DNA from: a virus
Lineage: Duplodnaviria; Caudoviricetes
Strand: one strand, 5' to 3'
DNA length: 53,806 nt
Virus record (IMG/VR): IMGVR_UViG_3300018933_000006
Span: 1-53,806 of that record
Shown: in pieces, positions 4,009-53,711 of the stretch
Position numbering within the stretch: position 1 is the first letter of the stretch
Layout of the letters: each line of letters begins with the position of its first letter
Notes under the pieces: model-generated
What the model was told of the DNA's origin: nothing
The model's input: only the letters and a program-made list of their open reading frames with translations
Database searches by the model: none
Program-made: the position numbers and the translations under genes

Positions 4009-5238
4009 TCAGCCGGTCGCGATGCCGACCTTCTCGGCGAGCGCGCCTGCCTCCCTGCGCATGGCCCGGGGAGCGTTCCGCCACAGGTCGGCGGCCACGG
4101 TCCGGGCGGACGGCGTGTAAGCGACGGTCTCGGCGCCGATCCTGTGGGCCATCTGCATGACGTGCAGGGCGGCGGTCCGGTCGCCTCGCTGGAGGTGCCC
4201 GCGGGCGACCTCGACCCACAGGCGGGCCTGCCGCTCGACCGAGGGCATGGTGTCGGGGTCGATGTCGTCGGCCAGGCCGATCGCCTTCTGCGATTTACGC
4301 AGGTCGGTGGCGACACTCACGGCGTGGAAGTCCACGTTGGCGCGCCCGAACACCGTGCTCGGGTGCACGTAGCTGGCGGGTAGGGACTTGGCGACCTGGT
4401 CGCCCTTGTCCCAGTACCGCCAGGCGTCGCCCTCGCGGCCCTCGCGCGCGGTGGTGACTGCGGCGTGCAGCTGGAGCGCGCCGTAGATGCCGCGCCAGTC
4501 GTCGGGTGCGGAGTCCAGGTGCGGCCGGATGAGGTCGGCCGCCTCCAGAACGACGCGCAGCGCCTCCTCGGGGTAGCTCGTTTCGCGCAGGATGTTGCCC
4601 ATGTTCCAGGCCGCGGCCGCGATCGCTGCGGGCTGATCGGCGTCCTGCGCGGCCGCCAGCGCGCGGTCCGCGACGACCCAAGCGAGTTCGGCCGGCGCGA
4701 CGTAGGCGGTGGCCTGCCCGGTCAGGCGGTAGACATCGGACAGGGCGACCAGCGCGGTGCGTCGCTGCTCGCCGTCGAGGGTGCGCACGGCTGCCTCGAT
4801 GTCGCGGATCAACTCGGGGAGAACGGCGCCCACTTCGGTGCGGTTGTGCTGGGAGGTGTGCCACAAGCGCCATGTCTGGTCGACGCGGCCCTGGAGGATT
4901 GCCGGTTCTATCGGTGTGTCAGAGCGTCGGGCGGTCAGTGTGCGCTGCATGACAGCGGCCCAGATGCCGGGCATGGCCGGGTGGGGCAGCCTGCCAAGTG
5001 GTACCGAAGCGGCTGGCCCGTCGGTGCCGGTGATGACGGCCAGGTCGTGGACCTGGAGGGCGGCGGCCAGACGCAGCAGCAGCGTATGAGAGCGCAGTTC
5101 GCGTTCGCCCGTTTCGATCTTCTTCAACCAGTCGCTACTACGACCGCAAAGCTGTGCGAGTGCGGCCCGAGACATGCCGCGGGACTCCCGCAGGACCCTG
5201 ATCCGTTCGCCGACGCTGAGTTCCGCTGAGAGATCCAA
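4009..5238 (-). CDS. XRE-HTH regulator with long helical (TPR-like) C-terminal domain
   Basis: VGERIRVLRESRGMSRAALAQLCGRSSDWLKKIETGER, then Ala-rich helical repeats; TTG start with AAGGGGG RBS. Confidence 0.85.
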   Translation of the reverse strand: MDLSAELSVGERIRVLRESRGMSRAALAQLCGRSSDWLKKIETGERELRSHTLLLRLAAALQVHDLAVITGTDGPAASVPLGRLPHPAMPGIWAAVMQRTLTARRSDTPIEPAILQGRVDQTWRLWHTSQHNRTEVGAVLPELIRDIEAAVRTLDGEQRRTALVALSDVYRLTGQATAYVAPAELAWVVADRALAAAQDADQPAAIAAAAWNMGNILRETSYPEEALRVVLEAADLIRPHLDSAPDDWRGIYGALQLHAAVTTAREGREGDAWRYWDKGDQVAKSLPASYVHPSTVFGRANVDFHAVSVATDLRKSQKAIGLADDIDPDTMPSVERQARLWVEVARGHLQRGDRTAALHVMQMAHRIGAETVAYTPSARTVAADLWRNAPRAMRREAGALAEKVGIATG

Positions 5239-5315
5239 TGGTGCCCCCTTGGGTGCCGGTGCCGGTGCCGTTGTCGTCAGGGTAAGGCGGCCGTCAATGT
5301 CGAACATGACGAATG

Positions 5316-5345
5316 GCCCCCTCCCGCCCGAAGGCGAGAGGGGGC
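5316..5345 (-). terminator. Terminator of the lysis operon with cUUCGg tetraloop
   Basis: Minus-strand stem closing C-TTCG-G, 6 nt after the collagen gene stop. Confidence 0.7.
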
Positions 5346-5351
5346 ATGAGG

Positions 5352-6050
5352 TCATGGGTACTGTCGTCGCTGCGGGTCGAGGCCTGCGGACAGCAGGTTC
5401 CCGCCGCCGCTCGGCTCCGGGTTGGGTGCGCCATCGCGGCGGCAGACGAGGGCGTCGGGGTCCCAGCTCGGGGCCTGGAGGCTGTACCCGTCGGGGCAGG
5501 AAGGTCCGGCGGGCCCGGGTTCCCCGCGCTCGCCTTGCGGTCCCTGCTCACCTTGAGGCCCCGGCGGGCCGACCGGTCCGGCCGGGCCCGGTTCCCCTTG
5601 CGGTCCTGGCGGTCCTGCCGCGCCTGCCGCTCCGGGCTCCCCTGCGGCACCCGGTTCACCTGCGGCGCCCGGCTCGCCGGCCTCCCCGGCGGCTCCGTCT
5701 CCTCCGCGTGCCCCCGTCTTCCCCGGCGCGCCGGAGGGCCCAGCGGGTCCGGGCGGGCCCGGCTCACCCTGTGGCCCTGGCGGGCCGGACGGTCCTGGCG
5801 GGCCGGTCACCGACGGGCCGGGCTCGCCGCGGCTCCCCGGGGGCCCGGCCACAGGCTGCGCCCCAAGAGCTTCCACCTGCCTGGCCAGTGCGTCCCGCGC
5901 TGCGTTGGCGGTGTGCAGATCGTGGCTGAGAGCCTGGACGCTGAGGACAATCCATGCGACCGCGGCCCCGAGGCCGACAGCGGCGACGACGGTCCACGCG
6001 TTGCCGCGCCGCCACCGGCGCTCCTCGGTCCGCATCTGCGACTGCGTCAC
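5352..6050 (-). CDS. Membrane-anchored collagen-like protein (lysis cassette)
   Basis: N-terminal TM, coiled coil, long Gly-X-Y tract, C-terminal Cys pair. Confidence 0.9.
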
Positions 6051-6052
6051 GG

Positions 6053-6343
6053 TCAGGCCCCCCGAGTCAGCAGGATGATGACGGGCAAGAGGATTCCGAT
6101 CAGCGGCACGATCACAGCGCCGATCAGCCAGCGCCTGGTGGTGACGAGCCGCTCGGCGTCCTTCTCCCGCAGCGTCTCCAGCGTGGTGACCCGCGCGCCG
6201 AGTGCCTCGTGGCGCAGGTCGTAGATGCGCTGGTCGACCTTCTCGTCCATGCGCCGGCCGAGCTGCTGGATGTCGTCGCGGAGGTCGACGAACCGGTCCT
6301 CGAACCGCCTGACGACCTCGCCGAGGGTCGGCTCATCGGTCAC
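6053..6343 (-). CDS. Coiled-coil protein with C-terminal TM (lysis accessory)
   Basis: Single C-terminal hydrophobic helix; position in lysis cassette. Confidence 0.8.
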
Positions 6344-6355
6344 GTGCTGCTCCGA

Positions 6356-6721
6356 TCAGAGAGCGGTCGGCCTGGCGTGCTGCGAGGCGGGCGCGGTGGG
6401 GGAGGCCGGGGAGACCTGGCCTCGGGTGATGAACATCAGGACGGAGAGGACCAGTCCGTTGATGGCTGCGGTGGTGGTGGGCTGTACTTCATAGCCGAAG
6501 GCGGCGATGGCCGAGGCCAGGGTGGCGACAAGGGTCGTGAAGGCCTGCACGGCGATCGGCCGGGTGAGGGCGGCGGCGATGGCGCCGAGGATCGCGGAGA
6601 CGCCGGCCACGGTCCAGCCAGCTTGCTCCTCGGTGAGGCCGACGTTGAAGGTGACGACCAGGCCGAGGATCGCGCTGAGGCTGTTCAGCCAGAGCGCGGG
6701 TTCGCGTCCGAAGATCTTCAT
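6356..6721 (-). CDS. Putative holin
   Basis: MKIFGREPALW start, ~4 hydrophobic segments, near the endolysin. Confidence 0.75.
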   Translation of the reverse strand: MKIFGREPALWLNSLSAILGLVVTFNVGLTEEQAGWTVAGVSAILGAIAAALTRPIAVQAFTTLVATLASAIAAFGYEVQPTTTAAINGLVLSVLMFITRGQVSPASPTAPASQHARPTAL

Positions 6722-17415: not shown

Positions 17416-18077
17416 CAGACCGTCCAGGCGACGAGACGGAACCGGTCGCCCGGCAGGGACCGCAGCGCGCGAAGCATCTTCGGCGCGTAGTACGACGGCC
17501 CAGAGCGGTTCTCGCCGGCGCCGTACTGGATCTGCACCGAGCCGATGCTCACGCCCTGGAGTGGGCCGCTGATGTCGTTCTCCACGCCGACCTCCATCCA
17601 GAACTCGGCCTGCGCACACACGGCTTCGGCCAGCGCGGAGGCGACGACCGGGTCTGACGGCAGACCGTCATCGGTGGTGTCGTAGACGGCCGGGACGAGG
17701 AAGTCCCGCTCCAGCATTCGCGACGCCTCCAGCAGCAGGCGAGCCGAGTCGAGCGGCGGCGCCGCACCGAGGTACTCGGCCAGCTGCGTCGTCGTCGCAT
17801 ACACCCGGCCCGTCACGCCCACGGCCGGTGCCGGGGCTACGGAGACGACTTCGTGCTGCACGCTCGCGCCGGTCCCGGTGACCGTCCACGACAGCCGCCA
17901 CAGCCCCGCCGCGGTGTAGGTGAGCGTGGCCGTCCACGTCTTCCCGCCGTCGGCGGTGCCGGTGGTCGGTGTGGTGACCGCGCCGCTGGGCGAGGTCACG
18001 GCGAGGACGGCGCTGGTGGTGGCGTCGTGCGGGTCGACGGTGAGGGAGGCGGTGACGGTGTCGCCGACGTCGGGCAT
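17415..18077 (-). CDS. Head-to-tail adaptor with extra N-terminal Ig-like domain
   Basis: C-terminal YATTTQLAEYLG...EAVCAQAEFW...VSIGSVQIQY; N-terminal ~85 aa Thr-rich beta domain. Confidence 0.8.
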   Translation of the reverse strand: MPDVGDTVTASLTVDPHDATTSAVLAVTSPSGAVTTPTTGTADGGKTWTATLTYTAAGLWRLSWTVTGTGASVQHEVVSVAPAPAVGVTGRVYATTTQLAEYLGAAPPLDSARLLLEASRMLERDFLVPAVYDTTDDGLPSDPVVASALAEAVCAQAEFWMEVGVENDISGPLQGVSIGSVQIQYGAGENRSGPSYYAPKMLRALRSLPGDRFRLVAWTV

Positions 18078-23612: not shown

Positions 23613-25127
23613 CTACGGCAGGTCTCCGAGCTGCATCGGGTCGGGCACCGCGGTGCCGGTCTCCTGCTGGATCCGCGCCACCTCGGCCTGCACCTGGTCC
23701 TCGTCCCACTCCGGGTGCGCCATCCGCACCAGGGTGTCCGTCGAAGCCGCCTGCGCCCGCCGCAGCACGTCAGCCGTGTTCGCCAGCGCCAGCGGGTCCT
23801 CCTGCACCGAGTCCTCGAACTCGACCGTGGGCCGCTGCGGCACGAGGGCGCCGCCGTAGACGTACTGGTCGACTGCGAGGAGCGCTTCCACCAGATGCGC
23901 GAGCGCCGGCCGCCAACGCAGAATCTTCCGGCCGCGGGTCGTCATCGAGCGGCGCTCGCGGGCGGTGACCTCCGTGGCGGTTACGGCGACGTCGCCTCCG
24001 ATGCCGAACGTCTGGCCGCTGTATCCGGCGGAGCGAAGGATCTGGTTGACAAGATCCTCTGCTGTTTCCTTGTGCTCCCGCACGCGGATCGCGAACTGGG
24101 CCACGGTCAGCTGGCTGCTGGCGTCGCCGCGAGCCAGCATCTCCAGCCCGGCGAACGCTTCCTGGTCCGGGTCCCACGACGCGCCGCGTCCTGGCCCGGC
24201 CGACTGAAGGTAGGCGTTCGGGACGATGATGCGGCCCTTGCCGAGGCGGATGTCCCGCATCCAGCTGGAGTAGGTCTCGTCGAGGGCGTCCATCAGCGGC
24301 TCGACGCCGTCCAGGTCGCTGCGGCCGAGGTCTTTCAGCTTCGGCTGGCTACGCCAGCGGCGGCTGCTCTGGTTGGGGATGTGGACGACGTCCAACTTGT
24401 TGTACCCGGTGGGGATGCTGCCGTCCTCGCCGACCAGGGCGGCAAAGCCTGCGGTCTCCTCGCTGTCCTCCAGCGGGACCGGCTGGCCGAGTTTCTCCGC
24501 GGTGCCCTGGTACAGACCGTGCAGGATCACCCCGGGTTCGTGTCGCTGAAGCCACCGCCAGACCTGTCCGTCCTGCTCGCGGACGACCTTCCAGAACGTG
24601 ACCGCGCTGAGCCTGCCCCAGGTGAACTCGGGGACAGCCCGGTCGGCGTGCTCCGCTGTGATCCACGACCGGTCCGCGATGTCCTTGTCGTACACCGGGC
24701 GGAGGTACACCCCGCCGAGCGCGGCGCCGACCTCGGCGGCGGTCTGGAGAGTGGCGAGCATGCCGTCGTCGGTGAGGTCATCGAGGCGGGCCTGGGTGGT
24801 GTCGTCGTCAACGGTGAACCGCGGCGGCTCGGAGAACAGGAGGTCGGCGGAGCCGCCGCACAGGTCGCCAGCGATGGGCACGTGCAATTTCGTGCGCCGC
24901 TCGCCGGGTGCGGTGGGGGTGCCCCACCACCAGCGGGCCAGCCTACCGACGACGCCACCGGCGAACTGGTAGCGCTTCGGGTCGGGGCCGATGCCCGTTC
25001 CGCCGCCGTAGAGGCGTTCGAGGCGGTCGATGTCGCCGCTCCACCAGGTGTCCCAGGTGTTCATCGCGTCGAGGGCGGGGCCAAGATGCGGCGGGGGCCA
25101 GGGAGCGTCACCTGCGGGCAGCGACAT
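23613..25127 (-). CDS. Portal protein (SPP1/A118-like)
   Basis: 504 aa after terminase; GRSDL, LDETYSSWMRDIRLGK, TATEV. Confidence 0.92.
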   Translation of the reverse strand: MSLPAGDAPWPPPHLGPALDAMNTWDTWWSGDIDRLERLYGGGTGIGPDPKRYQFAGGVVGRLARWWWGTPTAPGERRTKLHVPIAGDLCGGSADLLFSEPPRFTVDDDTTQARLDDLTDDGMLATLQTAAEVGAALGGVYLRPVYDKDIADRSWITAEHADRAVPEFTWGRLSAVTFWKVVREQDGQVWRWLQRHEPGVILHGLYQGTAEKLGQPVPLEDSEETAGFAALVGEDGSIPTGYNKLDVVHIPNQSSRRWRSQPKLKDLGRSDLDGVEPLMDALDETYSSWMRDIRLGKGRIIVPNAYLQSAGPGRGASWDPDQEAFAGLEMLARGDASSQLTVAQFAIRVREHKETAEDLVNQILRSAGYSGQTFGIGGDVAVTATEVTARERRSMTTRGRKILRWRPALAHLVEALLAVDQYVYGGALVPQRPTVEFEDSVQEDPLALANTADVLRRAQAASTDTLVRMAHPEWDEDQVQAEVARIQQETGTAVPDPMQLGDLP

Positions 25128-25300
25128 CAGACGCCCTCCCGTTCCATCAGCAGGTGCGCCAGTCCCAGCCAGGACGTGGCGAGTTCGTCGAGCCGCTCCA
25201 TTAGAGCGAGGTTCGTCTCCAGCTCGGCCGCGCGCAGCAGCCGTGCCGCGTTTTCAATCGCAGCGTCGGGGGTGATCCGCTCCTCGGGGCTGCTGGACAT
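25127..25300 (-). CDS. 57-aa helical protein between terminase and portal
   Basis: TGATG overlaps at both ends; RBS GGAGG. Confidence 0.7.
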   Translation of the reverse strand: MSSSPEERITPDAAIENAARLLRAAELETNLALMERLDELATSWLGLAHLLMEREGV

Positions 25301-26571
25301 CAGGCGGCCACCTCCAGTCGAGTCGGCAGGTACGGCCGCCACAGGGCCTCGGTCGTGCGCACCCCGTACCGCAGCGCGTCGCAGCTGTGGTCGTTCTCCT
25401 TGATCGGCCGGTCCTCGCCCCGCTCGGCCGCGCCGTCGTCCCAGCTGTAGCCCGGGAGTTCGTCGATCAGGCCCTGCGCGGACTCGTGCACCAGCAGGTC
25501 GCCGGTTGAGAAAAGACTGCTGACCGTGCGGATGCCGTCGAGGACCGAGTTGTCCGCCGCCGTCACACCGCTGACGCCGTCGCGGTGCAGCTGCTCGATG
25601 TACGACGACGCGGATGGGTCCACGATCGTCCATTCCGGCTGCACGCCCATCACGTTGGTCTGAGGCTGCGGCACTCGCGCGAGCCACTGACGGCGGGCAC
25701 GGGAGTACTCGGAGTCCGTCATCTGCCGACGCGCGGTGCGGGAGTCGTGCCGGTACTCCGAAACCACGTACAGGCGCCGGTCCGTGCCGACGCCGATCAG
25801 GACATCGGCGTACGGGTTGACGGTGCCGTAGTCGATCGAGTCGCACAGCCACCGCTCGATCTGCGGCAGCGTCCGAACGACGTGCCGGTGCGCGTCGAAC
25901 ATCTCGTAGATCGCGCCCTCGGACTGCACCCAGTGCCCGGCGATGAAGCGCCGGTACCACAGGCCGACGTACTCGGCCTTCAACGAGGCCACGTAGGCCG
26001 GGTCGAGGGCGGGGTTGTCGTCGAGGGTGAAGTGCCACTGGCGGAGGTCGAGGTCTCCCTGACGGTCGAGGAACTCCTTCTTCAACCAGTGGCCGGGGTT
26101 GTCCGGGTTGGTCGTGGCCATCAGCCGCGCACCAGGTACCGACAGGCGGCCCAAGAGCTGGTTCCAGAAGCCGCGCGGGATCAGCGTCGCCTCGTCCACG
26201 TAGGCGAGGCAGGCGGTCAGGCCGCGGAGGCGGCCCTCGGCACGGGAGTCTGCTGCGCCGATCAGGTGGATCGTGCGACCGAGGACGGTCGCGGTGGTGG
26301 CGCCCCGGGTGTGCTGCACCAGCCGGGCTACCGGTCCGAACAGCGTCTCGTCTTGCAGTGGGTCGAGGACGTTGCGCTCGATGGTCTGGAGGGATCGGCC
26401 GACGATGACGATCAGTCCGGACGCCGGCGCGGCGGCGACCGCGATGAGGAAGGCGATCAGCGAGGAGATCGTCTTGCCCGACCGGATCGCCCCGTGCCAC
26501 ACGTTGATGCGGGCCGTGGCGTCGGCGATCGAGCGGATCTGCTTGCGGGACAGGGGCAGCGAGTCGAGCAT
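25300..26571 (-). CDS. Terminase large subunit (PBSX-like)
   Basis: GAIRSGKT Walker A, YVDE Walker B, TTNP, DYG, NDHSCDALRY. Confidence 0.97.
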   Translation of the reverse strand: MLDSLPLSRKQIRSIADATARINVWHGAIRSGKTISSLIAFLIAVAAAPASGLIVIVGRSLQTIERNVLDPLQDETLFGPVARLVQHTRGATTATVLGRTIHLIGAADSRAEGRLRGLTACLAYVDEATLIPRGFWNQLLGRLSVPGARLMATTNPDNPGHWLKKEFLDRQGDLDLRQWHFTLDDNPALDPAYVASLKAEYVGLWYRRFIAGHWVQSEGAIYEMFDAHRHVVRTLPQIERWLCDSIDYGTVNPYADVLIGVGTDRRLYVVSEYRHDSRTARRQMTDSEYSRARRQWLARVPQPQTNVMGVQPEWTIVDPSASSYIEQLHRDGVSGVTAADNSVLDGIRTVSSLFSTGDLLVHESAQGLIDELPGYSWDDGAAERGEDRPIKENDHSCDALRYGVRTTEALWRPYLPTRLEVAA

Positions 26572-27113
26572 CAGCCCTCCTCGCGATCGTCCTCCCCAGT
26601 GTCCAGACCGGCCAGCCTGTTCAGGCCCTCGGCGAGGGAGCCCAGCATCGAGCGGGCGGCCTCCACTCCGGGGTCGCCGTCGAGCTGTTCGAGCTTGACG
26701 GCCTGGTTGAGGTACTGGGTGATGGCGCCGGCGAGTGCCTTCTCCTCCTGGCCCGGCACGTGGTCGAGGTGCTCGGTCTCGATGCCGTTGACGGTGCTGG
26801 CCGTGAACTGGAAGCCGCCGTGCTCGGCGGCGTCGAGGCGGTCAAGCAGCTTCTCGACTCGCGCGTATGCCCGGTCGACGATGGCTGCGCGGCGCGCTTT
26901 GGCGTCGGTCTTGCGGGCCTCGGTGGCGACCGCGGTGGCCGTACGGTCGAAGGTGAGGTCCATCTCGGCGGCGTACACGCTGATCGTGCGGGGTGAGCGC
27001 TGCATGAGGGTGGCGATCTCGTTGCGGCCCTTGCCTTCGGCGTGCAGCCGTCGCAGTGTCTCGCGTTCCTCGTCGCTGAACTCGCCGCCCTTGCTGGTCT
27101 TGGGCGCGACCAC
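26571..27113 (-). CDS. Terminase small subunit (HTH)
   Basis: N-terminal HTH (GKGRNEIATLMQRSPRTIS); coupled to large subunit; RBS GAGGAGG. Confidence 0.8.
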   Translation of the reverse strand: MVAPKTSKGGEFSDEERETLRRLHAEGKGRNEIATLMQRSPRTISVYAAEMDLTFDRTATAVATEARKTDAKARRAAIVDRAYARVEKLLDRLDAAEHGGFQFTASTVNGIETEHLDHVPGQEEKALAGAITQYLNQAVKLEQLDGDPGVEAARSMLGSLAEGLNRLAGLDTGEDDREEG

Positions 27114-27137
27114 GTGCACCTCCTCGGGGCATGCGAA

Positions 27138-27578: not shown

Positions 27579-27731
27579 GGTCCCCCCCTGGAGCGGTGTG
27601 GATGAGGGGGCATCATGCCGTACCCGGTGTGATCGTTTCCGGGCATGCCAGATCTGCGGCTCAGTGTGAGGCATGATCGCGCGGAACGCAACTACGGCCG
27701 TAGTGCTGATTGCCTCAGATGGAACGCACGA

Positions 27732-27765
27732 GGCCCCGCCGTCCACGGGGGGAGACGGCGGGGCC
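27732..27765 (-). terminator. Hairpin ending the membrane module, loop UCCCCCCGUG
   Basis: 12-bp perfect stem; loop identical to that at 1975-1984. Confidence 0.75.
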
Positions 27766-27813
27766 GGTTGTCGGGCGCTACTCGACGCGAGCCACCAGTG
27801 TGGCAGGACGGCG

Positions 27814-27984
27814 TCAGGTCAGCTCATCGACGTCGGCCACACCGTTCTGCTCGCGCATCGCCCGATCGGACTGGATGGTGAACCGCCGGCGCTGCTCCGG
27901 CGTCCACGCGGCCGGGTTCTTGGGCAGCCCGGCGACCGTGTCCCGCAGCTGCTCGGTCTCGCTCTTGCGGTTGAAGAGGGCCAT
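27814..27984 (-). CDS. 56-aa protein MALFNRKSETEQL... (below ORF-track cutoff)
   Basis: RBS AGGAG; GC-rich third positions. Confidence 0.7.
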   Translation of the reverse strand: MALFNRKSETEQLRDTVAGLPKNPAAWTPEQRRRFTIQSDRAMREQNGVADVDELT

Positions 27985-28117
27985 GATGGCGGTCTCCTGT
28001 CTCGTGATCGGGATGGGAACCGGGGCGGCCGGTAGCTGGCAGGCGCAGGCCGCCCCGGTGTTCAGCGAGTGGGCTACTTGCCGTCGCTCTTGGTCATCTC
28101 GGCGAGGTTCTCCTTGG

Positions 28118-28204
28118 GGTAGACCGGCGGTAGATTCGCCGGTAGATCGGGGTAGATCGGCCGGTAGACGTGCAGGTCAGGCGGCGGTAGACGGCGCGGT
28201 AGAC
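28118..28204. repeat. Array of 7 GGTAGAY direct repeats (clt-like)
   Basis: Copies at 28118, 28129, 28141, 28151, 28163, 28186, 28198. Confidence 0.9.
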
Positions 28205-28782
28205 ATCTCGCCGGCTACAGCCGGGGAAGGGGCCAGATCGGCCCGCCGCACACCCCTCGTCGGGCTCTTGGAGCCGGGCACCTTCACTTTGGGCTGGACG
28301 GGGATGTGAAGGGCCTCCAAACGGGCCCTCAGGTCGGCCACCTTCCAGCCCTTTCCGTGGCCCTGCTCCTGGAGGTGGGCGAGGACGGTGCGGAGGTGCA
28401 CCGCGTCGGCGGTCCCCATGGCCTCCAGCAGGAGGGCGCGCACGGCGTCCAAGTCGGGCTCCGCGGAGGCCTCGTCGTCGGCCGCGGGGGCGGCCGTCGT
28501 CCCGGCCTTCCAGGCGGCGCGGATCCACCACCCGACGAGGAGCCACATCAGCCACGGCAGGGCGCGGACGACTGCCCACAGGGCGTAGGCCGCGGCGCCG
28601 AGCACGGCCAGGCGCAGCAGCGGACCGAGGGCGGCGCGCCACCCGTCGAGGTCGTCGCGGCGGCCGGCGCGCACCCACGCGGTGAGGGCGTCGGTGCGGC
28701 GCTGCCAGACGAGGGCGCTGCCGCGGCACAGCCGGTCGGCGGCGGTGGTGCGGGCGGCCCACAGAGCGAGTTGGCGGCGCAT
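28177..28782 (-). CDS. Membrane-anchored winged-helix protein resembling TraB C-terminal domain, no ATPase
   Basis: TM hairpin then LLLEAMGTADAVHLRTVLAHL...WKVADLRARL...RGVRRADL; no Walker motifs. Confidence 0.65.
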   Translation of the reverse strand: MRRQLALWAARTTAADRLCRGSALVWQRRTDALTAWVRAGRRDDLDGWRAALGPLLRLAVLGAAAYALWAVVRALPWLMWLLVGWWIRAAWKAGTTAAPAADDEASAEPDLDAVRALLLEAMGTADAVHLRTVLAHLQEQGHGKGWKVADLRARLEALHIPVQPKVKVPGSKSPTRGVRRADLAPSPAVAGEMSTAPSTAA

Positions 28783-29282
28783 CACAGACCGTTCTCCAGG
28801 ATGGTGCGGCCCTCGGCGCCGATGGCGTTGACGAGGTCGGGCCACCAGCCGAGGAGCTCGGCGACGCCGGGCAGGAACCCGAGGACGGCGAACGAGCAGA
28901 TGCCGCCGACGATCCGCCGCTTGTCCTGCTTCCCCGAGCCCTTGAACAGCAGGATCACGCCGAGCAGGATCAGGCAGACCACGATGGCGCCCTCGTAGGT
29001 GAGGGTGCCCATGCGGCCGGTCGGCATCGGCGCCGCCCCGGACGTGCCGGTCACCTTGGACACGCCGGCGTCGCCGCTGCCGGTGAAGATGCCGGCGATA
29101 CCGGCTGCTCCCCAGCCGAGCGCGCCGCCGATGCAGATGGTGGCGAGGGAGCCGAGGCCGGCGCCGCTGGCGTAGGGCACGAGGGCCTTGGGGTCTCGGC
29201 CTCCCTTCCACCAGGGGCGCAAGTTGGCGTAGAGGATGCCGAGGGCGACGGCGGCGCCGGCGAGGGATAGGCCTACGTTCAT
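28782..29282 (-). CDS. Gly-rich multi-pass membrane protein
   Basis: ~4 hydrophobic segments; coupled overlaps on both sides. Confidence 0.8.
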   Translation of the reverse strand: MNVGLSLAGAAVALGILYANLRPWWKGGRDPKALVPYASGAGLGSLATICIGGALGWGAAGIAGIFTGSGDAGVSKVTGTSGAAPMPTGRMGTLTYEGAIVVCLILLGVILLFKGSGKQDKRRIVGGICSFAVLGFLPGVAELLGWWPDLVNAIGAEGRTILENGL

Positions 29283-29947
29283 CGGGGGACTCCGGTGAGG
29301 AACTGGATTGGGTCGTACCAGGAGAGGGCGCCGAACGCGCCGATGAAGGTGACGGCGAGCGCGAACAGGCGTAAGGGGCTGCCTCCCTTGCGGACGATGG
29401 CGGTGATCGCGAGGGTGAGGGGGATGAGGCCGAGGGCGTAGCCCCAACCCACTCCCCAGTCCTCACGGGCGAGGCTGACGGTGAAGTGCCACGTGGTGGC
29501 GACTGAGTAGCCGGTGTGTGGGATCGGTGTGACGGCCAGCGTCAGCCCGGTGACGGCGTGCCAGGGGCGGACGTACCGGCCGAGCCAGGCTGTAATCCGT
29601 TCCCAGCGGGACGGTTCCGGATCGGGTTCCGCCCACGCCAGCACGACCTCGTGGACGTGACGGATCTCTACGGGGCGCGGCTGCGGATCGGGTGGAACGG
29701 GCGTCGGATCTGGCACTGCGGGTGGGGGCGGAGGGGGCGGCGGTGTCCGCCAGGGCGGGGCTTCACCGGGCTCCGGCGGCCGGGCGGGGAGCGGGGCGCC
29801 GGCGGGGATGATCCGGGTGGGGGTGACGGGGCGGGGCTCGGGGTCGTGCATGGGTGGCTCCTGGTGGCCGAGGGGGCGGGCGCCGAGGCGGCGGAGGTGG
29901 TGGCGGGCGCGCAGCTCGTCGCCGCCGGGCGACGGCCGCGCGCCCAT
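29279..29947 (-). CDS. Proline-rich membrane protein containing a TTA codon (alternative start 29851)
   Basis: Poly-Pro N-terminus, ~3 C-terminal TM; CCC TTA CGC at 29372-29374. Confidence 0.8.
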   Translation of the reverse strand: MGARPSPGGDELRARHHLRRLGARPLGHQEPPMHDPEPRPVTPTRIIPAGAPLPARPPEPGEAPPWRTPPPPPPPPAVPDPTPVPPDPQPRPVEIRHVHEVVLAWAEPDPEPSRWERITAWLGRYVRPWHAVTGLTLAVTPIPHTGYSVATTWHFTVSLAREDWGVGWGYALGLIPLTLAITAIVRKGGSPLRLFALAVTFIGAFGALSWYDPIQFLTGVPR

Positions 29948-30819
29948 CAGGCGCCGACCCGGAGGGCGCGGAGGTAGCGGTCGACGCTGCTCTGCGGGAC
30001 CTGCTTGCCGGTGGCGTTCCGGACGGTCCGGAGGACGGCTTCCGGGTCGCGGATTCCGGAGTCCCAGGCGTTCCGGACTGCTTCCTGCGTGGTCACGCGG
30101 CCCGAGCGGATCGGGCTGACCTTGGGATCCGGATCTTCCGAAGTGGGCTCCGGAGTTCCGGGTGCCTCCGGAATTGCGGATCCGTTCTCCTCGGGGGTTC
30201 CGCCGAGGCTGCGCCGCTCGGCGTCTACGAGGGCCTGGCCGCGCTGGAGTTCCCGCCGGATCGGGATCATGGCGAGCTGGCCGTCGACCTTCGCGCGACG
30301 GGCGGTCACCCACTGCTGGGTGCGTGGGTCGAGCGGCCGGGCGTGCACGCGCATCGCCATCGACCAGCCGCCCTTGGCGAGCGCGGACACGACCGCGCCG
30401 ACCGCACCGATCACCCACGTGTCGGCGATGAGGTAGCCGTGCGCGAAGACCGCGCCCATGGACACGGCGAGCGCCCACCGGCCGGCCCGCCGCGCGACCT
30501 GCGCCCGTTCGGGGTCGTAGCGCAGCAGCCACTCCACGCCCATGCACATGATCCAGCTCGCGTCGAAGGCGACCGCGGCGGCGTAGGCGACGGCGGCGAT
30601 GGTGACGGCGGACAGGAGGTCGCCGATGCTGGCGGTCGTCCAGGCAAGGGACGCAGTGACGAGGATGATGGCGCCGATGGTGACGGCGGTGCGGACGATG
30701 TGGTCCCAGTCGCGGGGCGGTGCGGGGACCTCGATCTGTTCGCGGTCGAGGACCATCTCGGTGACGCCGTCGACGGTGTGAGGGACGAGCCGGGTCCGCT
30801 CGATGGTGCGGGTCTTCAC
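29947..30819 (-). CDS. SpdB2/DUF2637-like 4-TM, coiled-coil, C-terminal HTH protein
   Basis: 4 hydrophobic helices, coiled coil, linker, QEAVRNAWDSGIRDPEAV...SSVDRYLR. Confidence 0.65.
   Translation of the reverse strand: MKTRTIERTRLVPHTVDGVTEMVLDREQIEVPAPPRDWDHIVRTAVTIGAIILVTASLAWTTASIGDLLSAVTIAAVAYAAAVAFDASWIMCMGVEWLLRYDPERAQVARRAGRWALAVSMGAVFAHGYLIADTWVIGAVGAVVSALAKGGWSMAMRVHARPLDPRTQQWVTARRAKVDGQLAMIPIRRELQRGQALVDAERRSLGGTPEENGSAIPEAPGTPEPTSEDPDPKVSPIRSGRVTTQEAVRNAWDSGIRDPEAVLRTVRNATGKQVPQSSVDRYLRALRVGA
30018..30172. repeat. Cluster of 7 TCCGGA palindromes in 3' end of SpdB-like gene
   Basis: 30018, 30027, 30055, 30072, 30128, 30149, 30167 plus single-mismatch variants. Confidence 0.8.
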
Positions 30820-39577: not shown

Positions 39578-39892
39578 TCAGGCGGTGGGCGGCTGCGTCT
39601 CGCGCGGGTCGTAGGGCCACGCCATGTCGCGCGTCCCCCACGGGGCCTTGTGCGAGCCTCGGTGGCCCTTGGCCTGGGTGCAGCGGGTGTCGGTGTGGTG
39701 GGGGTAGAAGGCGCCGCAGGCGGGGATGCGGGCGCCGGTGGCGATCCAGTCGGCGACGTTGGCCCAGTCGCCGTCTCGACCCTTGATGACGACCTCGCCG
39801 AAGAGGGCGCGGAAGGCATCGGCGAGGACGGCGGGGGTGCTGGGGCTCTCCGCGGCGGGCTCGTAGCGGGCTTCGTAGTCCTGCTCGGTCAT
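39578..39892 (-). CDS. Hypothetical protein with C..C..H..H motif
   Basis: ATGA overlap with helicase stop. Confidence 0.65.
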   Translation of the reverse strand: MTEQDYEARYEPAAESPSTPAVLADAFRALFGEVVIKGRDGDWANVADWIATGARIPACGAFYPHHTDTRCTQAKGHRGSHKAPWGTRDMAWPYDPRETQPPTA

Positions 39893-41709
39893 GCGCTGTG
39901 CCTTTCGTGGTCGGTGGTGGGGTGCTGGGGGCGGTCGGGGTGGCTGCCGGTGGCGGGGTCGCATCCGAGGTGGGTGTCGTATCCGCGGTTGGCCCAGTCG
40001 GGGTTCATGGGGAGGGCGCAGATGGTGCAGATCGGGCGTTCGTCGTCCCGGGTCCCGGGGTCCCCCTCCGTACCTCCCCCCGCCTTAGAGGCGGGGCGGG
40101 GGGAGGGAGGTCGGGGAGGGACGTCCCCCGGGGCTCCCCCGGGATTCGGGGGGAGGTTTGACCTGCGGGTTTGCGTGTTCTCCTCGGAACTCCCCCCTTG
40201 ATCGTGGGGGAGTTCGCTTTCAAGATCGCGGGGGAGGTTCGGGGGGAGGTCATTTCGGGCATCCCGAACCTCGTCGAAGGAGTCCCTCCGCTTGCGGATC
40301 CGGACGGCCTCCTCGACCTTCTCCTTGCGCATCGAGATGCCGTACTCGGCGCACCACTTGATGACCCGGGGGCTGCCCCACTTCAGCGGGACCGCGGCCT
40401 TGTCGAGCACGCTGACGAGCCACTCCGGGGTGCCCTTGACCAGCTCGGCGGGCCGGTGGTCGAGGGACTCCAGCACGACCGATGTGACCGGCCGGCCGTC
40501 GGGCTTTGCTTCGCCGTCGAGGGTGATGACGCGCAGCCCGAATTGGAGGTCGGCGCCTTCCTCGTCGTCCTTCTGCTTGCCGACCTTGACGGTGACGATG
40601 ATGTTCTTGGCGTTGTCGCCCTTCTTCGACACGTGCAGCTCGGACTGGAGGGCGCCCTTGGCGGAGGAGGCTCCGCGGCCGTGTTCGCCGACGTGGCCGG
40701 TGTGGTGGACGACGAGGACGCAGGCGCCGGTGGCGCGGCGGAGGTCTTCCATCCGCTCGATGACGACGCCGACTTCGGTGTTGGAGTTCTCCTCGACGCC
40801 GACGGAGACGCGGGCCTGGGTGTCGATGACGATCATCTCGGGTGCGAGGCGGCGCATCGCCTCGATGAGGGTGTCCCACTCCGGGCCCATCGCCTGCACG
40901 GGGCGCGGGAGGAAGAGGACGTTGTCCATGCGGACGCCGTAGTGCTTCTCCCAGGCGCGGACGCGCTTGCGGATGCCGCGGGCGCCCTCGGCGACGAGGT
41001 AGACGACGGTGCCCTGGCGGACGTAGTGGCCGTGCCACTGCATGCCGGTGCCGACGTGTCCGGCGAGGTCGATCGTGACGAAGCTCTTCATGTGGCCGGA
41101 CGGGCCGATGATGCGGGCGAGGGAGTCCAGGTGCAGGAGGTCGCCGACGAGCGGCTCCAGCGTCGGCATGTTGTCGAGACTGGAGGCATCGAGGAGTTCC
41201 GCCAGCAGCGCGTCGGCGGGGTCGCCGGAGCGGCCGGCGGCGCGTTCCTTCTGCCGCTTCAGGTAGTCGTCGATGAAGGTGACGGCCTGGCCTGGCTCGG
41301 CCTCTGGTGAGGTGGCCTGCTGGACGATCAGGCGCCCCAGTTCGGCCTCGGCGCGCAGTTCGGCGCGGCGGCGGACCTCGCGGGCGTAGTACTCGGGGTT
41401 GCCGCCGTAGTCGCCGAGGCGAGCGACGTAGACGAGGCCGCCCGCGCGGCGCAGCTCCTGGCGCTTCTCCAGCTCGATACGCAGGGACATCGGGTTGACG
41501 GGCTCACCCTTGTCGTACAGCTCGCCGAGGACGTCCCAGATCAGTTCGTGGGCGGGCAGGGCGAAATCGCTGCGGGTGAGGATGCCGCGGATGGCGGGGA
41601 TCTGCTTGGGCTGGTGGATGCAGCCGCCGAGGACGTACCGCTCAGCCTCATGTTGGTCGGGGCCGTCGTGGTCCGCCTGCTGGTGCGGGATATGGCGGAC
41701 GTTGCTCAC
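39889..41709 (-). CDS. Replication protein: DnaB N-terminal-like domain fused to AAA_25/RepA-type helicase
   Basis: EAERYVLG...DFALPAHELIW; GPSGHMKS Walker A; IVIDT Walker B; VHHTG. Confidence 0.9.
   Translation of the reverse strand: MSNVRHIPHQQADHDGPDQHEAERYVLGGCIHQPKQIPAIRGILTRSDFALPAHELIWDVLGELYDKGEPVNPMSLRIELEKRQELRRAGGLVYVARLGDYGGNPEYYAREVRRRAELRAEAELGRLIVQQATSPEAEPGQAVTFIDDYLKRQKERAAGRSGDPADALLAELLDASSLDNMPTLEPLVGDLLHLDSLARIIGPSGHMKSFVTIDLAGHVGTGMQWHGHYVRQGTVVYLVAEGARGIRKRVRAWEKHYGVRMDNVLFLPRPVQAMGPEWDTLIEAMRRLAPEMIVIDTQARVSVGVEENSNTEVGVVIERMEDLRRATGACVLVVHHTGHVGEHGRGASSAKGALQSELHVSKKGDNAKNIIVTVKVGKQKDDEEGADLQFGLRVITLDGEAKPDGRPVTSVVLESLDHRPAELVKGTPEWLVSVLDKAAVPLKWGSPRVIKWCAEYGISMRKEKVEEAVRIRKRRDSFDEVRDARNDLPPNLPRDLESELPHDQGGSSEENTQTRRSNLPPNPGGAPGDVPPRPPSPRPASKAGGGTEGDPGTRDDERPICTICALPMNPDWANRGYDTHLGCDPATGSHPDRPQHPTTDHERHSA
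40061..40251. repeat. Iteron-like GGGGGAG repeats, candidate replication origin inside helicase gene
   Basis: GGGG(G)AG near 40099, 40113, 40149, 40206, 40230, 40242 plus inverted copies; Pro-rich linker in protein. Confidence 0.65.
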
Positions 41710-52334: not shown

Positions 52335-53711
52335 ATGCCCTACGTGGAGCGACGCGGCAACAGCATCCGCGTCAAGTGGTGGGGCGGCGAGTACAAGCCA
52401 GGCCCGGACGGCAAGCCCACCAAGACCAAGAAGTACGAGTCCGCCTCCGGGCCAGAGCCCGGCGTTCCGTTCAGGGATGAGGAGGAGGCGTACAACTACG
52501 GCCTCGACCGGGAGCACGACGTCCGCCACGGCAAGCACATCCCGCGCGCGGACGCGAGGACGCCGATGGAGGAGTACTGCTGGACCTGGTTCGAGGCGGC
52601 GGAACTCCGCCCGAATTCCGTCGACACCTACAAGTCCATGCTCAACGCGGTGATCATCCCAGACTGGCAGGGGCGTGCTGTCGGTGCCATCACGCCCCCT
52701 GAGTACGACCTGTGGAAGAAGAGCATCGAACGCAGGTACTCCGCGAACTACGCCAGCCAGCTGCGCGGGGTGTTCCGCATGCTGATGGAGGACGCCGTCC
52801 TCAAGTACAAGCTGCGCACGGACTCGCCGATCGTCGAGCAGCACCGACGCGGCCGGTACACCAAGAAGCAGACGCGCCGGAAGAAGCGGCAGCTGCCCAT
52901 CGAGGCCGTGCACAAGCTCGCCGTCAACGCCTACCACGTCTGGGGCTTCACCGGCTGGACGTACATCTGGACCGTCGCCTTCACCGGCATGAGGCCGCCC
53001 GGCGAGATGTACGGTCTCCAGCGCGGCTACACCTCGGCGCACTGGCCGGCCTCCGACCCGGATCCGGAGAGGCGCAAGGAGGCCCTGGAGCGGTACCAGG
53101 GCAAGCTGCACGCGCTGCGTGTGCAGCACCAGCTCTACCGAGCGGACGGCCTACCGACACTCGCCGGTCCGAAGTATGAGTCCTACCGGACGCAGGTGAT
53201 CCCCCCGTTCCTGCACGAGATGCACGCCGCGCTGCTGGCCTCTCATGACAAGCCGTTCGTGTTCCTATCGCTGACCGGCAAGCCGCTGCTGGGAGCGCAG
53301 TTCGAGCGGGACTACTGGCATCCGATCCGGGACGGCGCCAAGGAGCGGAAGGCGCGCAAGGGCTACGAACGGTTCACCCGGCCCAAGCTGCCGGCCGTGG
53401 AAGAGATGGCAGGGCAAGATCTCTACCGATTGCGGCACTGGCACCGGGAGCTGCTGGACGAGCCGGGCGCCGACATCGCGCGCGTCGCGAAGGAGGCCCG
53501 GATGGGTCACGAGCTGCCGGGCGTTGAGGGCGTCTACAGCATGGTGACCTTGGCGATGGAGGAGCGCATCGTCGAGTACCTCCAGGAGGTCTGGGAAAAG
53601 TTTCTGAGCACGGGCCCGTGGCTTCCGCCTTTTCCCAACGCTCTCCCAGATGATCAAGGAAACGCTCCGTCCGCGCTGTTCAGCGACTTCCGCATCCTTG
53701 AAGGAGAGTGA
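52335..53711 (+). CDS. int: Tyrosine integrase
   Basis: TGMRPPGE, PK, YRLRH, MGH, GVYS catalytic motifs; abuts att core. Confidence 0.95.
   Translation: MPYVERRGNSIRVKWWGGEYKPGPDGKPTKTKKYESASGPEPGVPFRDEEEAYNYGLDREHDVRHGKHIPRADARTPMEEYCWTWFEAAELRPNSVDTYKSMLNAVIIPDWQGRAVGAITPPEYDLWKKSIERRYSANYASQLRGVFRMLMEDAVLKYKLRTDSPIVEQHRRGRYTKKQTRRKKRQLPIEAVHKLAVNAYHVWGFTGWTYIWTVAFTGMRPPGEMYGLQRGYTSAHWPASDPDPERRKEALERYQGKLHALRVQHQLYRADGLPTLAGPKYESYRTQVIPPFLHEMHAALLASHDKPFVFLSLTGKPLLGAQFERDYWHPIRDGAKERKARKGYERFTRPKLPAVEEMAGQDLYRLRHWHRELLDEPGADIARVAKEARMGHELPGVEGVYSMVTLAMEERIVEYLQEVWEKFLSTGPWLPPFPNALPDDQGNAPSALFSDFRILEGE

Follow-up and report, generated by a model that had tools for sequence, protein, structure and literature searches.

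A prophage genome of the VWB/Kromp type from Streptomyces carries a gene, P0001, whose 201-aa product is predicted to be a membrane-anchored winged-helix protein, and the end of this gene runs into a phased array of short direct repeats. P0001 and the array probably represent a cognate reader/site pair of TraB/clt ancestry in a temperate Streptomyces phage, one that would tether the phage DNA to a membrane complex. In Streptomyces conjugation, a single FtsK-like protein, TraB, reads the repeats of the clt locus and pumps double-stranded DNA, and Spd proteins spread the DNA in the mycelium. The evidence comprises the anatomy of the array, its conservation across related loci, the fold of the P0001 C-terminal domain, the homology of that domain to TraB C-termini, and the repeats and core held in common with the DNA that follows traB genes. 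The stretch analyzed, referred to as the window, is the 53,806-nt IMG/VR record IMGVR_UViG_3300018933_000006 (~70% G+C, nearly all genes on the minus strand); coordinates follow the numbering of the window, and the gene strand is minus. A preliminary description of the window had proposed a motorless TraB-like winged helix followed by a clt-like array and had interpreted the two as a cognate protein/site pair; the comparisons below, which are of sequences and predicted structures, support that interpretation.

A phased repeat array straddles the P0001 stop codon

Direct reading of the plus strand located seven GGTAGAC/T (GGTAGAY) heptamers starting at 28118, 28129, 28141, 28151, 28163, 28186, and 28198. 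The start-to-start spacings are 11, 12, 10, 12, 23, and 12 bp, and the repeats straddle the stop codon of the 201-aa gene, as had been reported in the preliminary description. The window contains 14 copies of GGTAGAY in total, compared to 4.8 ± 2.2 (largest 10) across 100 shuffles, and half of them (7/14) are held by the 87 bp at 28118–28204. The P0001 stop codon TGA (28179–28177) falls within the 23-bp gap of the array, and therefore two repeats lie in the coding end of the gene and five lie downstream. The two in-gene repeats encode ..ST..ST.. / ..ST..STAA in the C-terminal tail of P0001; the C-terminal peptide quoted in the preliminary description was also correct by translation. The features of this region are as follows:

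28118..28204, minus strand: phased array of R1 and R2 (RTCTACC, in the coding end), the core, and R3–R7 downstream; mean period ~11.4 bp
28170..28180, minus strand: core CTGACCTGCAC, which contains the TGA stop and occupies the "missing" repeat slot between R2 and R3; kept in 70/73 loci
28020..28058, minus strand: G+C-rich hairpin with arms CCGGGGCGGCC and GGCCGCCCCGG, read from the sequence and from RNA folding

The octamer TGACCTGC is found at 28172–28179 on the minus strand, overlapping the P0001 stop codon, and a second copy is found at 40159–40166 on the plus strand. Both positions had been given correctly in the preliminary description. Taken alone, the recurrence at 40159 carries little weight because the window contains seven copies of TGACCTGC (2.0 expected), and the remaining five are all in coding sequence. 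The hairpin at 28020..28058 is likely the end of the operon transcript; a scan for T-tract terminators did not call it. Between the array and the hairpin is a 7-codon open reading frame (ORF; 28074–28097, minus strand; MTKSDGK, then stop) with a strong ribosome-binding site, AAGGAG at 28110–28115. This ORF is missing in Kromp and in the majority of related loci, in which the array is directly adjoined by the hairpin or by the following gene.

The array is single in the window's own genome, and the only other triple TCTACC there is a coding tandem. That run (locus L129, at 97905–97937 of contig C35 in genome G000) reads (GGGTCTACC) x4 and corresponds on the opposite strand to a tandem (PVDPVDPVDPVD) coding for the C-terminal end of a hydrolase-like protein. 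The run was considered as a second array and rejected as an unrelated coding 9-bp tandem.

P0001 combines a predicted membrane hairpin with a C-terminal winged helix

The P0001 gene and the two parts of its product discussed here are the following:

28177..28782 including the stop, minus strand: P0001, predicted 201-aa membrane-anchored winged-helix protein (phrog_5650, E = 4.7e-50, function unknown)
28501..28641, minus strand: P0001 residues ~48–94, long hydrophobic helix (AlphaFold2 pLDDT ~93, conserved hydrophobic columns)
28234..28452, minus strand: P0001 residues 111–183, predicted winged helix in the order helix-strand-helix-helix-strand-strand (AlphaFold2 pLDDT ≥90)

The AlphaFold2 model of P0001 (41 sequences; mean predicted local distance difference test [pLDDT] 83) contains a helix at residues 2–39, a helix at residues 48–94, a disordered linker, and the domain at residues 111–183. 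In the model, the second helix is read as a two-span membrane hairpin that is kinked at a conserved RALP and has a loop of ~4 residues. TraB-type proteins associate with the membrane via N-terminal hydrophobic helices, and the model and alignment predict the same for P0001 through helix 48–94. The C-terminal 75 residues are clearly modeled as a canonical winged helix, in line with the earlier assignment, and an AlphaFold2 model of the domain alone gave the same secondary-structure order as the full-length model. A Foldseek search with P0001 returned nothing at E ≤ 0.001, and its weak rows were winged-helix DNA binders. VIA-align against 48,161 chains gave winged-helix domains throughout, with a best Z of 6.5. 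A sequence search of the PDB with P0001 produced no named family. Matches to SAP/HeH were weak (10/32 and 3/32 domain members, best E = 0.0024) and fell under the cut-offs. None of the 32 domain sequences matched DUF3631 (PF12307) at E ≤ 1; TraB-like C-termini do match PF12307 (E = 3.8e-5 and 1.7e-3), and any relation of the phage domain to DUF3631 is at most indirect.

The claim that P0001 has no motor is borne out by the Pfam search, which found no family at E ≤ 1 and thus no FtsK/SpoIIIE motor (PF01580). A search for longer (fused) relatives of P0001 found none, which is weak evidence in the same direction. At least 340 relatives were found at E ≤ 0.001 among the 8000 candidates scored; they are 154–256 aa long, all are annotated as hypothetical, none has a Pfam domain, and all named ones are from Streptomyces. 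At E ≤ 0.001, the domain profile recovered 476 cluster representatives. Nearly all of the top 150 proteins are 180–260 aa with the domain at the C-terminus, and the eight longer ones scanned (319–516 aa) lack PF01580. One 262-aa relative, P0269, has the winged helix at its N-terminus, joined to a T5orf172/MUG113 (GIY-YIG-like) domain; the winged helix therefore appears to occur outside the membrane context as well, in soluble proteins. Judged by its sequence, this fusion would also argue for a DNA-binding role of the domain elsewhere.

The array is conserved with the winged-helix domain

Conservation was examined in a set of 78 loci consisting of 8 IMG/VR loci, 67 loci from species-representative genomes, Kromp, one plasmid locus, and the window. 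The C-terminal domain was found by tblastn in 73 of the 78, and the conservation counts use these 73. At least five copies of TCT[AC]CC occur within 190 bp around the stop codon in 66/73 loci. The background, determined from 17,633 other windows of the same loci, is a mean of 0.071 copies per 190-bp window, and no background window contained three or more copies apart from the array of L010 itself, which has six. The presence of the array across the homologs is far beyond chance. Six of the remaining seven loci carry variant repeats at the array position, namely ACTACR (L068, L075, and L069), CCTACC (L013), and CTACC (L061), and the L064 array has three TCTACC plus degenerate copies.

When anchored on the core, 70/73 loci align gap-free and in register, in the order R1, 12 bp, R2, 11 bp, core, 12 bp, R3, and then R4–R7. 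Over all loci, spacings of 10 bp were found 56 times, 11 bp 51 times, 12 bp 169 times, and 23 bp 63 times, for a mean of 11.41 bp. The core slot is occupied by a true GTCTACC followed by TGCRC in six loci whose stop codon comes earlier. L068 and L075 retain CTGACCTGC even though their stop codon is 20 bp upstream, and the octamer therefore belongs to the site and is not merely stop-codon context. In most phage loci, the repeats all point the same way; in the VWB-type phages, R2 is inverted (GGTAGAC-N6-TGACCTGC).

The constant parts of these loci are the P0001-type gene that precedes the array and, ahead of it, two genes for membrane proteins. The gene 3′ of the array varies, and in ~22 related loci a G+C-rich hairpin directly abuts the last repeat. 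In L071, L074, and L013, unrelated membrane N-termini are joined to the same C-terminal winged helix and the array is still there; the array therefore follows the domain and not its neighbors. The nearest sequenced phages are Kromp and VWB, in which the gene order and the stop-straddling array are the same as in the window, with VWB reading GGGAGAY where the window has GGTAGAY. The gene-array pair is present in Kromp, VWB, and all eight IMG/VR loci, and VWB and Kromp are the only carriers among 50,697 phage records (two phages, three records).

Some further observations concern individual loci. L013 is on the Streptomyces scopuliridis plasmid NZ_CP109092.1, where positions 5107–6360 encode a 395-aa protein with an acidic/lysine-rich N-terminal half and a membrane segment; its winged helix (43% identity over 65 residues) is followed by the CCTACC repeats and CTCTGACCAGGCATAAC. 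The CTCTGACCAGGCATAAC string is also found 3′ of a traB gene in L103. In VWB (L003), TGACCTGCG occurs six times, against ~1 expected, with non-array copies at 17664, 20783, 21899, and 49212. The extra copies are located at the gp24/gp25 junction and, on the opposite strand, in two intergenic stretches downstream of the array, and one copy directly follows the terminator hairpin beside attP.

The domain is homologous to the C-termini of one TraB clade

The domain profile was searched against 401 genomes of the class, yielding two matches at the C-terminal ends of long frames (E = 8.4e-6 and 8.5e-4), which encode TraB-like FtsK/SpoIIIE translocases of integrative conjugative elements, as well as distant membrane-anchored relatives of the domain. 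Two conjugative elements, L087 and L088, were examined. In L087, the TraB-like gene is accompanied by genes for an integrase, an excisionase, replication proteins, a GntR regulator, and a DUF2637 protein. The L088 protein comes from another genus, is 605 aa long, has the same two Pfam matches as the L087 protein, and is encoded directly after a DUF2637 gene. Alignment of the phage domain profile with the last 119 residues of the L087 protein by hhalign gave a probability of 93.8% and E = 1.7e-7 over 77 columns, so the likeness to TraB C-termini asserted in the preliminary description stands for this clade; the case of pSVH1 TraB, where it does not, is taken up below.

TraB-like genes were found in 133 of 301 Streptomyces genomes, and the 30 best loci from these 301 genomes formed the traB comparison set. 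The phage profile matches 9/30 of them (E = 2e-9 to 8e-5), all near L087 (74–100% identity); the other 21 gave no match. The domain tree groups the eight TraB-borne domains in a single clade (support 0.99), separate from the 73 membrane-anchored ones. A structure search of the ESM Atlas placed a DUF3631 cluster and two actinobacterial FtsK/SpoIIIE clusters (~700–750 aa) near the top, with TM scores by query of 0.66–0.68, values that serve as a lead only.

Similar repeats and a core follow traB genes

The clt regions described for Streptomyces plasmids are direct repeats read by the C-terminus of the cognate TraB (PMC4447253). In pWTY27, clt consists of 16 bp inside traA and the adjacent 159 bp and contains four 7-bp repeats (TGACACC) that are bound by TraA (Wang et al. 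2012, PMC3583192). According to Vogelmann et al., as cited by Wang et al., helix alpha-3 of the C-terminal winged helix reads the repeats (PMC3583192). In the window, too, several short repeats are placed at and after the 3′ end of the gene for the predicted reader.

The traB genes of the L087/L088 clade have GTCTACC/GGTAGA repeats and CTGACCTGCR 3′ of the stop codon. The traB stop in L088 is followed by GTCTACC, CCTACC, GTCTACC, and GTCTACC in 11-bp steps and then by an inverted GGTAGAC. L087-type traB genes are followed by CTACCC, GTCTACCC, CACTACCCCGGTAGA, GGTAGAG, CCCTGACCTGCG, and further GTAG sites, and in relatives of L087 the CTCTGACCTGCAAGGT core is retained with GGTAAG or GGTCA variants on its flanks. 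The inverted GGTAGAC-N6-TGACCTGC spacing is common to the VWB-type phages and those traB loci. The designation of the array as a clt-like site thus gained support, since the same CTACC/GGTAG repeats and CTGACCTGC core stand after the traB stops of this clade.

Of 29 traB loci, nine have TGACCTGC on the coding strand no more than 270 nt past the stop (0.038 expected per window), and the looser CTGAYCWGS, which was defined after seeing the data, was found in the same region in 25/29. In pSVH1, the best-studied of the plasmids, whose TraB is associated with 8-bp repeats, GACCCGGA repeats come directly after traB, and CTCTGACCTGCGCAAAC is ~140 bp past the stop. Other TraB clades have GCTAGC-type repeats with a fixed CTGATCAGG ... 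ACCTGCG layout. In L102–L120, GCTAGC-type inverted and direct repeats follow the traB stop, with CTGATCAGG at +75, (C/G)ACCTGCG(G/A)AAAC at ~+104, and then a gene for a small membrane protein. This fixed layout suggests a common core signal across TraB clades; from the sequences compared, the clt regions of different clades may share such a signal beside their clade-specific repeats. Literature searches, with most subscription journals outside their scope, found no phage-borne TraB-type reader, phage clt-like array, or CTGACCTGC core.

Genome setting and the upstream membrane-protein genes

The P0001 gene and the array are at the end of the early region of the prophage. The genes that define this setting are listed below.

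52335–53711: integrase-like gene
39889–41709: DnaB-like helicase
29947..30819, minus strand: P0003, divergent DUF2637-type membrane protein with a C-terminal helix-turn-helix-like tail (phrog_35187, E = 1.6e-145)
29279..29851, minus strand: gp83-like protein with a proline-rich N-terminus and a membrane domain; AGGAG before the start
28782..29282, minus strand: P0002, polytopic membrane protein (phrog_16379, E = 2.7e-46)
26571–27119: small terminase with a helix-turn-helix (terS)
25300–26571: large terminase (terL)
23613–25127: portal, followed by head, tail, and lysis genes

P0002 and P0001 are translationally coupled, with the P0001 start overlapping the P0002 stop (ATGA), and the gp83-like gene is coupled to P0002 via the same type of overlap; Kromp gp83 occupies the same position. 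P0002 was found in 74 of the 78 loci and the gp83-like gene in 69, and P0003 was recognizable in 21 loci. P0001, P0002, and P0003 each fall into a PHROG family that has no assigned function. DUF2637 matches were obtained at the P0003 position for VWB gp24 (E = 1.2e-35) and Kromp gp82 (E = 1.4e-6). The P0003 family aligned with DUF2637 proteins from VWB, Kromp, and the two conjugative elements with an hhalign probability of 96.2% and E = 2e-9 over 86 membrane columns, a figure that may be inflated by membrane composition. DUF2637 genes adjoin traB in both conjugative elements examined. The membrane module is described here as "Spd-like" because of its position, membrane character, translational coupling, and DUF2637 content.

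A separate region at 40080–40260, within the 3′ third of the ORF for the DnaB-like helicase, contains approximately seven copies of the G-rich repeat GGGGGAGG(T) and is a candidate origin. Pfam domains on the helicase cover only residues 17–341 of 606. TTGACCTGCGGG is found at 40158–40169, inside this region and in the orientation opposite to the genes. A link between the octamer at 40159 and the array was considered and is unproven, the five other TGACCTGC copies being coding.

A model for the proposed reader/site pair

In the model we favor, P0001 would reside in the cytoplasmic membrane via its helix hairpin, with both ends facing the cytoplasm. Its C-terminal winged helix is the homolog of the clt-reading domain of one clade of TraB-like FtsK proteins, carried without the ATPase motor. 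The array can be described as eight ~11.4-bp slots, seven filled by RTCTACC and one by a degenerate CTGACC that supplies the stop codon, and it would correspond to the clt situated 3′ of traB in conjugative elements. Several copies of P0001 may bind head to tail along the array, presumably in a cooperative manner, and this binding would fasten the phage genome to a membrane complex formed with the three upstream, coupled membrane proteins. The ~11.4-bp period exceeds the helical repeat, and the DNA could be wound around a protein filament at the membrane, by analogy with plasmid centromeres.

Because it lacks the FtsK/SpoIIIE motor, P0001 is not a TraB; we regard it as a form of the TraB reader that is carried by a phage, has no motor, and is paired with a clt-like site. 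We infer that P0001 binds the array, that binding is cooperative, and that the membrane complex exists. The function of the pair is most likely the membrane tethering or spreading of phage DNA. Its purpose is the least certain part of the model, and we favor the holding or passing of phage DNA at the membrane or at cross-walls in a Spd-like manner, perhaps with a borrowed motor; stable inheritance or interplay with resident TraB motors would be other purposes. A more specific proposal, which we put forward only tentatively and consider rather doubtful as a whole, is that these phages pass naked double-stranded DNA through the mycelium. P0001 on the Spd-like complex would load the array and hand the DNA to a borrowed FtsK-family motor, from the host or from a resident element with the same repeat specificity, and the DNA would cross hyphal cross-walls or move between mycelia without virions, with CTGACCTGC as the common loading or start signal.

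Several results weigh against the favored model. By itself, the motorless module provides no energy source for DNA movement, and a search of the genome that carries the window at E ≤ 1e-20 gave no TraB of the conjugative-element type; the FtsK-family matches found there look like FtsK and EccC types. The pSVH1 TraB C-terminus showed no likeness to the domain profile, so the homology, and with it the earlier claim of TraB likeness, is limited to one TraB clade. Fold searches returned only generic winged helices (Z ≤ 6.5), with FtsK gamma not singled out. In the comparison of the A/C repeat variant with residues of the fold, only R179 (eta2 0.35) and R115 (eta2 0.32) stood out, and these signals are weak and confounded by descent; the top columns in the co-variation analysis belong to the C-terminal tail that the repeats themselves encode. 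The distant domain relatives L082 and L084 have no array near the stop codon. With regard to the membrane module, the pSVH1 Spd proteins (SpdB3, Spd79, SpdB2, Orf108, Spd198, and Orf140) gave nothing at E ≤ 0.05 against the window, VWB, and Kromp, the window membrane proteins had no match at E ≤ 0.01 in the conjugative-element and plasmid loci, and pSVH1 SpdB2 gave no link to DUF2637 by hhalign.

Comparison with known systems

The window module resembles TraB/clt systems in that a C-terminal winged helix is encoded just before short direct repeats that start in or at the end of the gene (PMC3583192, PMC4447253). It also shares a predicted membrane-associated protein, a domain homologous to that of one TraB clade, and the same repeat letters and CTGACCTGC core. 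It differs in that P0001 has no FtsK/SpoIIIE motor and is 201 aa long, whereas TraB proteins have ~600–770 aa; the carrier is a phage with terminase, portal, and tail genes; and the repeats are more regular, with eight slots at ~11.4 bp. A likeness to the spreading functions of Streptomyces plasmids lies in the operon of small coupled membrane proteins beside a DNA reader. The window membrane proteins, however, have no sequence likeness to the named pSVH1 Spd proteins, and position and DUF2637 provide the link. SpdB2-like genes have been noted on the actinophages phiC31 and VWB. SpdB2 homologs of phages have been suggested to aid the spread of phage DNA (PMC4447253).

The DNA-binding protein SpdA2 of pIJ101 has its binding sites in the gene that encodes it, and these sites impose a conserved motif on the peptide (Thoma et al. 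2014, PMC4170104). The two in-gene repeats of P0001 similarly dictate the ..ST..STAA peptide. By contrast, sps is a 12-bp palindrome whose reader uses an N-terminal domain bearing a zinc-finger motif, and it influences segregational stability (PMC4170104); SpdA2 has no homology to P0001.

The array of the window module can also be set beside plasmid centromeres. In parC/ParR of R1 and tubC/TubR of pBtoxis, direct repeats with a 10–12-bp period are arranged in two blocks and bound by many copies of a small DNA-binding adaptor, and the TubR adaptor is a winged helix. Those systems differ from the window module, which has no ParM- or TubZ-type filament gene, a predicted membrane-anchored adaptor, and an integrating phage as its carrier. 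Another parallel is the phi29 protein p16.7, a small protein anchored in the membrane that uses a cytoplasmic DNA-binding domain at its C-terminus to keep replicating phage DNA at the membrane. It binds DNA without sequence preference and its fold is unlike that of P0001; we know of no dedicated repeat array for p16.7.

Alternative explanations

The array could instead be an operator or activator site for the downstream genes that lead up to the late/packaging operon, with membrane-tethered P0001 or a different phage regulator as its reader. Phased direct repeats are a common feature of activator sites, and ToxR-type membrane-tethered regulators act on tandem repeats. The array is at the end of the early region, 1–5 kb upstream of terS/terL, and in many loci its last repeat is separated by a few bases from the ribosome-binding site of the gene that comes next. 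That next gene is not conserved, however, and the hairpin comes right after the last repeat in ~22 loci; in the window, the 7-codon ORF and then the hairpin follow the array. A promoter scan of 27700–28900, covering the sigma-70-like type only, found none. The ToxR-type arrangement of an N-terminal OmpR-type winged helix, a single membrane span, and an extracytoplasmic sensor was not seen in P0001, in which the winged helix is C-terminal, there is no outside domain, and no OmpR-family Pfam match was obtained; with the modeled hairpin loop of ~4 residues, P0001 would lack an extracytoplasmic sensor. The same repeats and core follow traB genes, which mark a known transfer locus (PMC3583192). We therefore regard an operator as unlikely.

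An explanation that we consider similarly improbable makes a foreign TraB the key partner. The array would then be a true clt through which the TraB motor of a resident element with matching specificity mobilizes phage or prophage DNA, or P0001 would be a motorless competitor that blocks TraB transfer (exclusion). One TraB clade does use the same CTACC/GGTAG repeats and core, the core is common to the clt regions of several TraB clades and pSVH1, and TraB-like genes are common in the genus (133/301 genomes, as above). The close clade is rare, however, with nine full-length loci (including that of the query itself) and one truncated locus among the 30 best, and no such TraB is encoded in the window's genome at the threshold given above. 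Hitch-hiking would need no more than a bare clt, yet ~70 loci also retain the protein and three membrane genes. The TraB-borne and phage-borne domains also fall into separate clades (support 0.99) and thus give no indication of a recent exchange.

Terminase-binding sites and origins can also contain phased short repeats, and the array is upstream of terS in the window. A packaging site (pac/cos accessory) or a replication origin is nevertheless very unlikely: the distance to terS/terL varies from ~1.3 to 5.5 kb where a fixed position would be expected, the linear Kromp record has terS at 200–754 and the array ~4.2 kb from its right end, the helicase/replication genes and the separate G-rich repeat region are ~12 kb away, and the same type of array follows traB in elements without a terminase. 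Least probable of all is that the repeats act in the transcript as an RNA platform in a 3′ untranslated or intercistronic region, as might be proposed from their single orientation in most phage loci and from their co-transcription with the operon if the hairpin is a terminator, given that there is no Rfam family match (only a chance row), the repeats by themselves do not form a stable fold (the hairpin accounts for the z-score of −2.7), the inverted repeats of VWB-type phages and traB loci preserve a duplex-DNA site and not an RNA motif, and the array is linked to a DNA-binding fold.

Implications

With the reader/site pair as the preferred explanation, the reading half of a TraB system and its site would be present in a large temperate-phage family with at least 340 relatives, VWB included. 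VWB offers a cheap and direct test case for the old passing suggestion that actinophage DNA spreads in the manner of plasmids. The comparison yields a recognition heptamer for one uncharacterized TraB clade and a CTGACCTGC core motif common to the clt regions of several clades, and the compact protein/site pair could serve as a membrane-tethering tool in Streptomyces. The pair is a hint that, inside the mycelium, phages of this family treat their DNA in the way that conjugative plasmids treat theirs.

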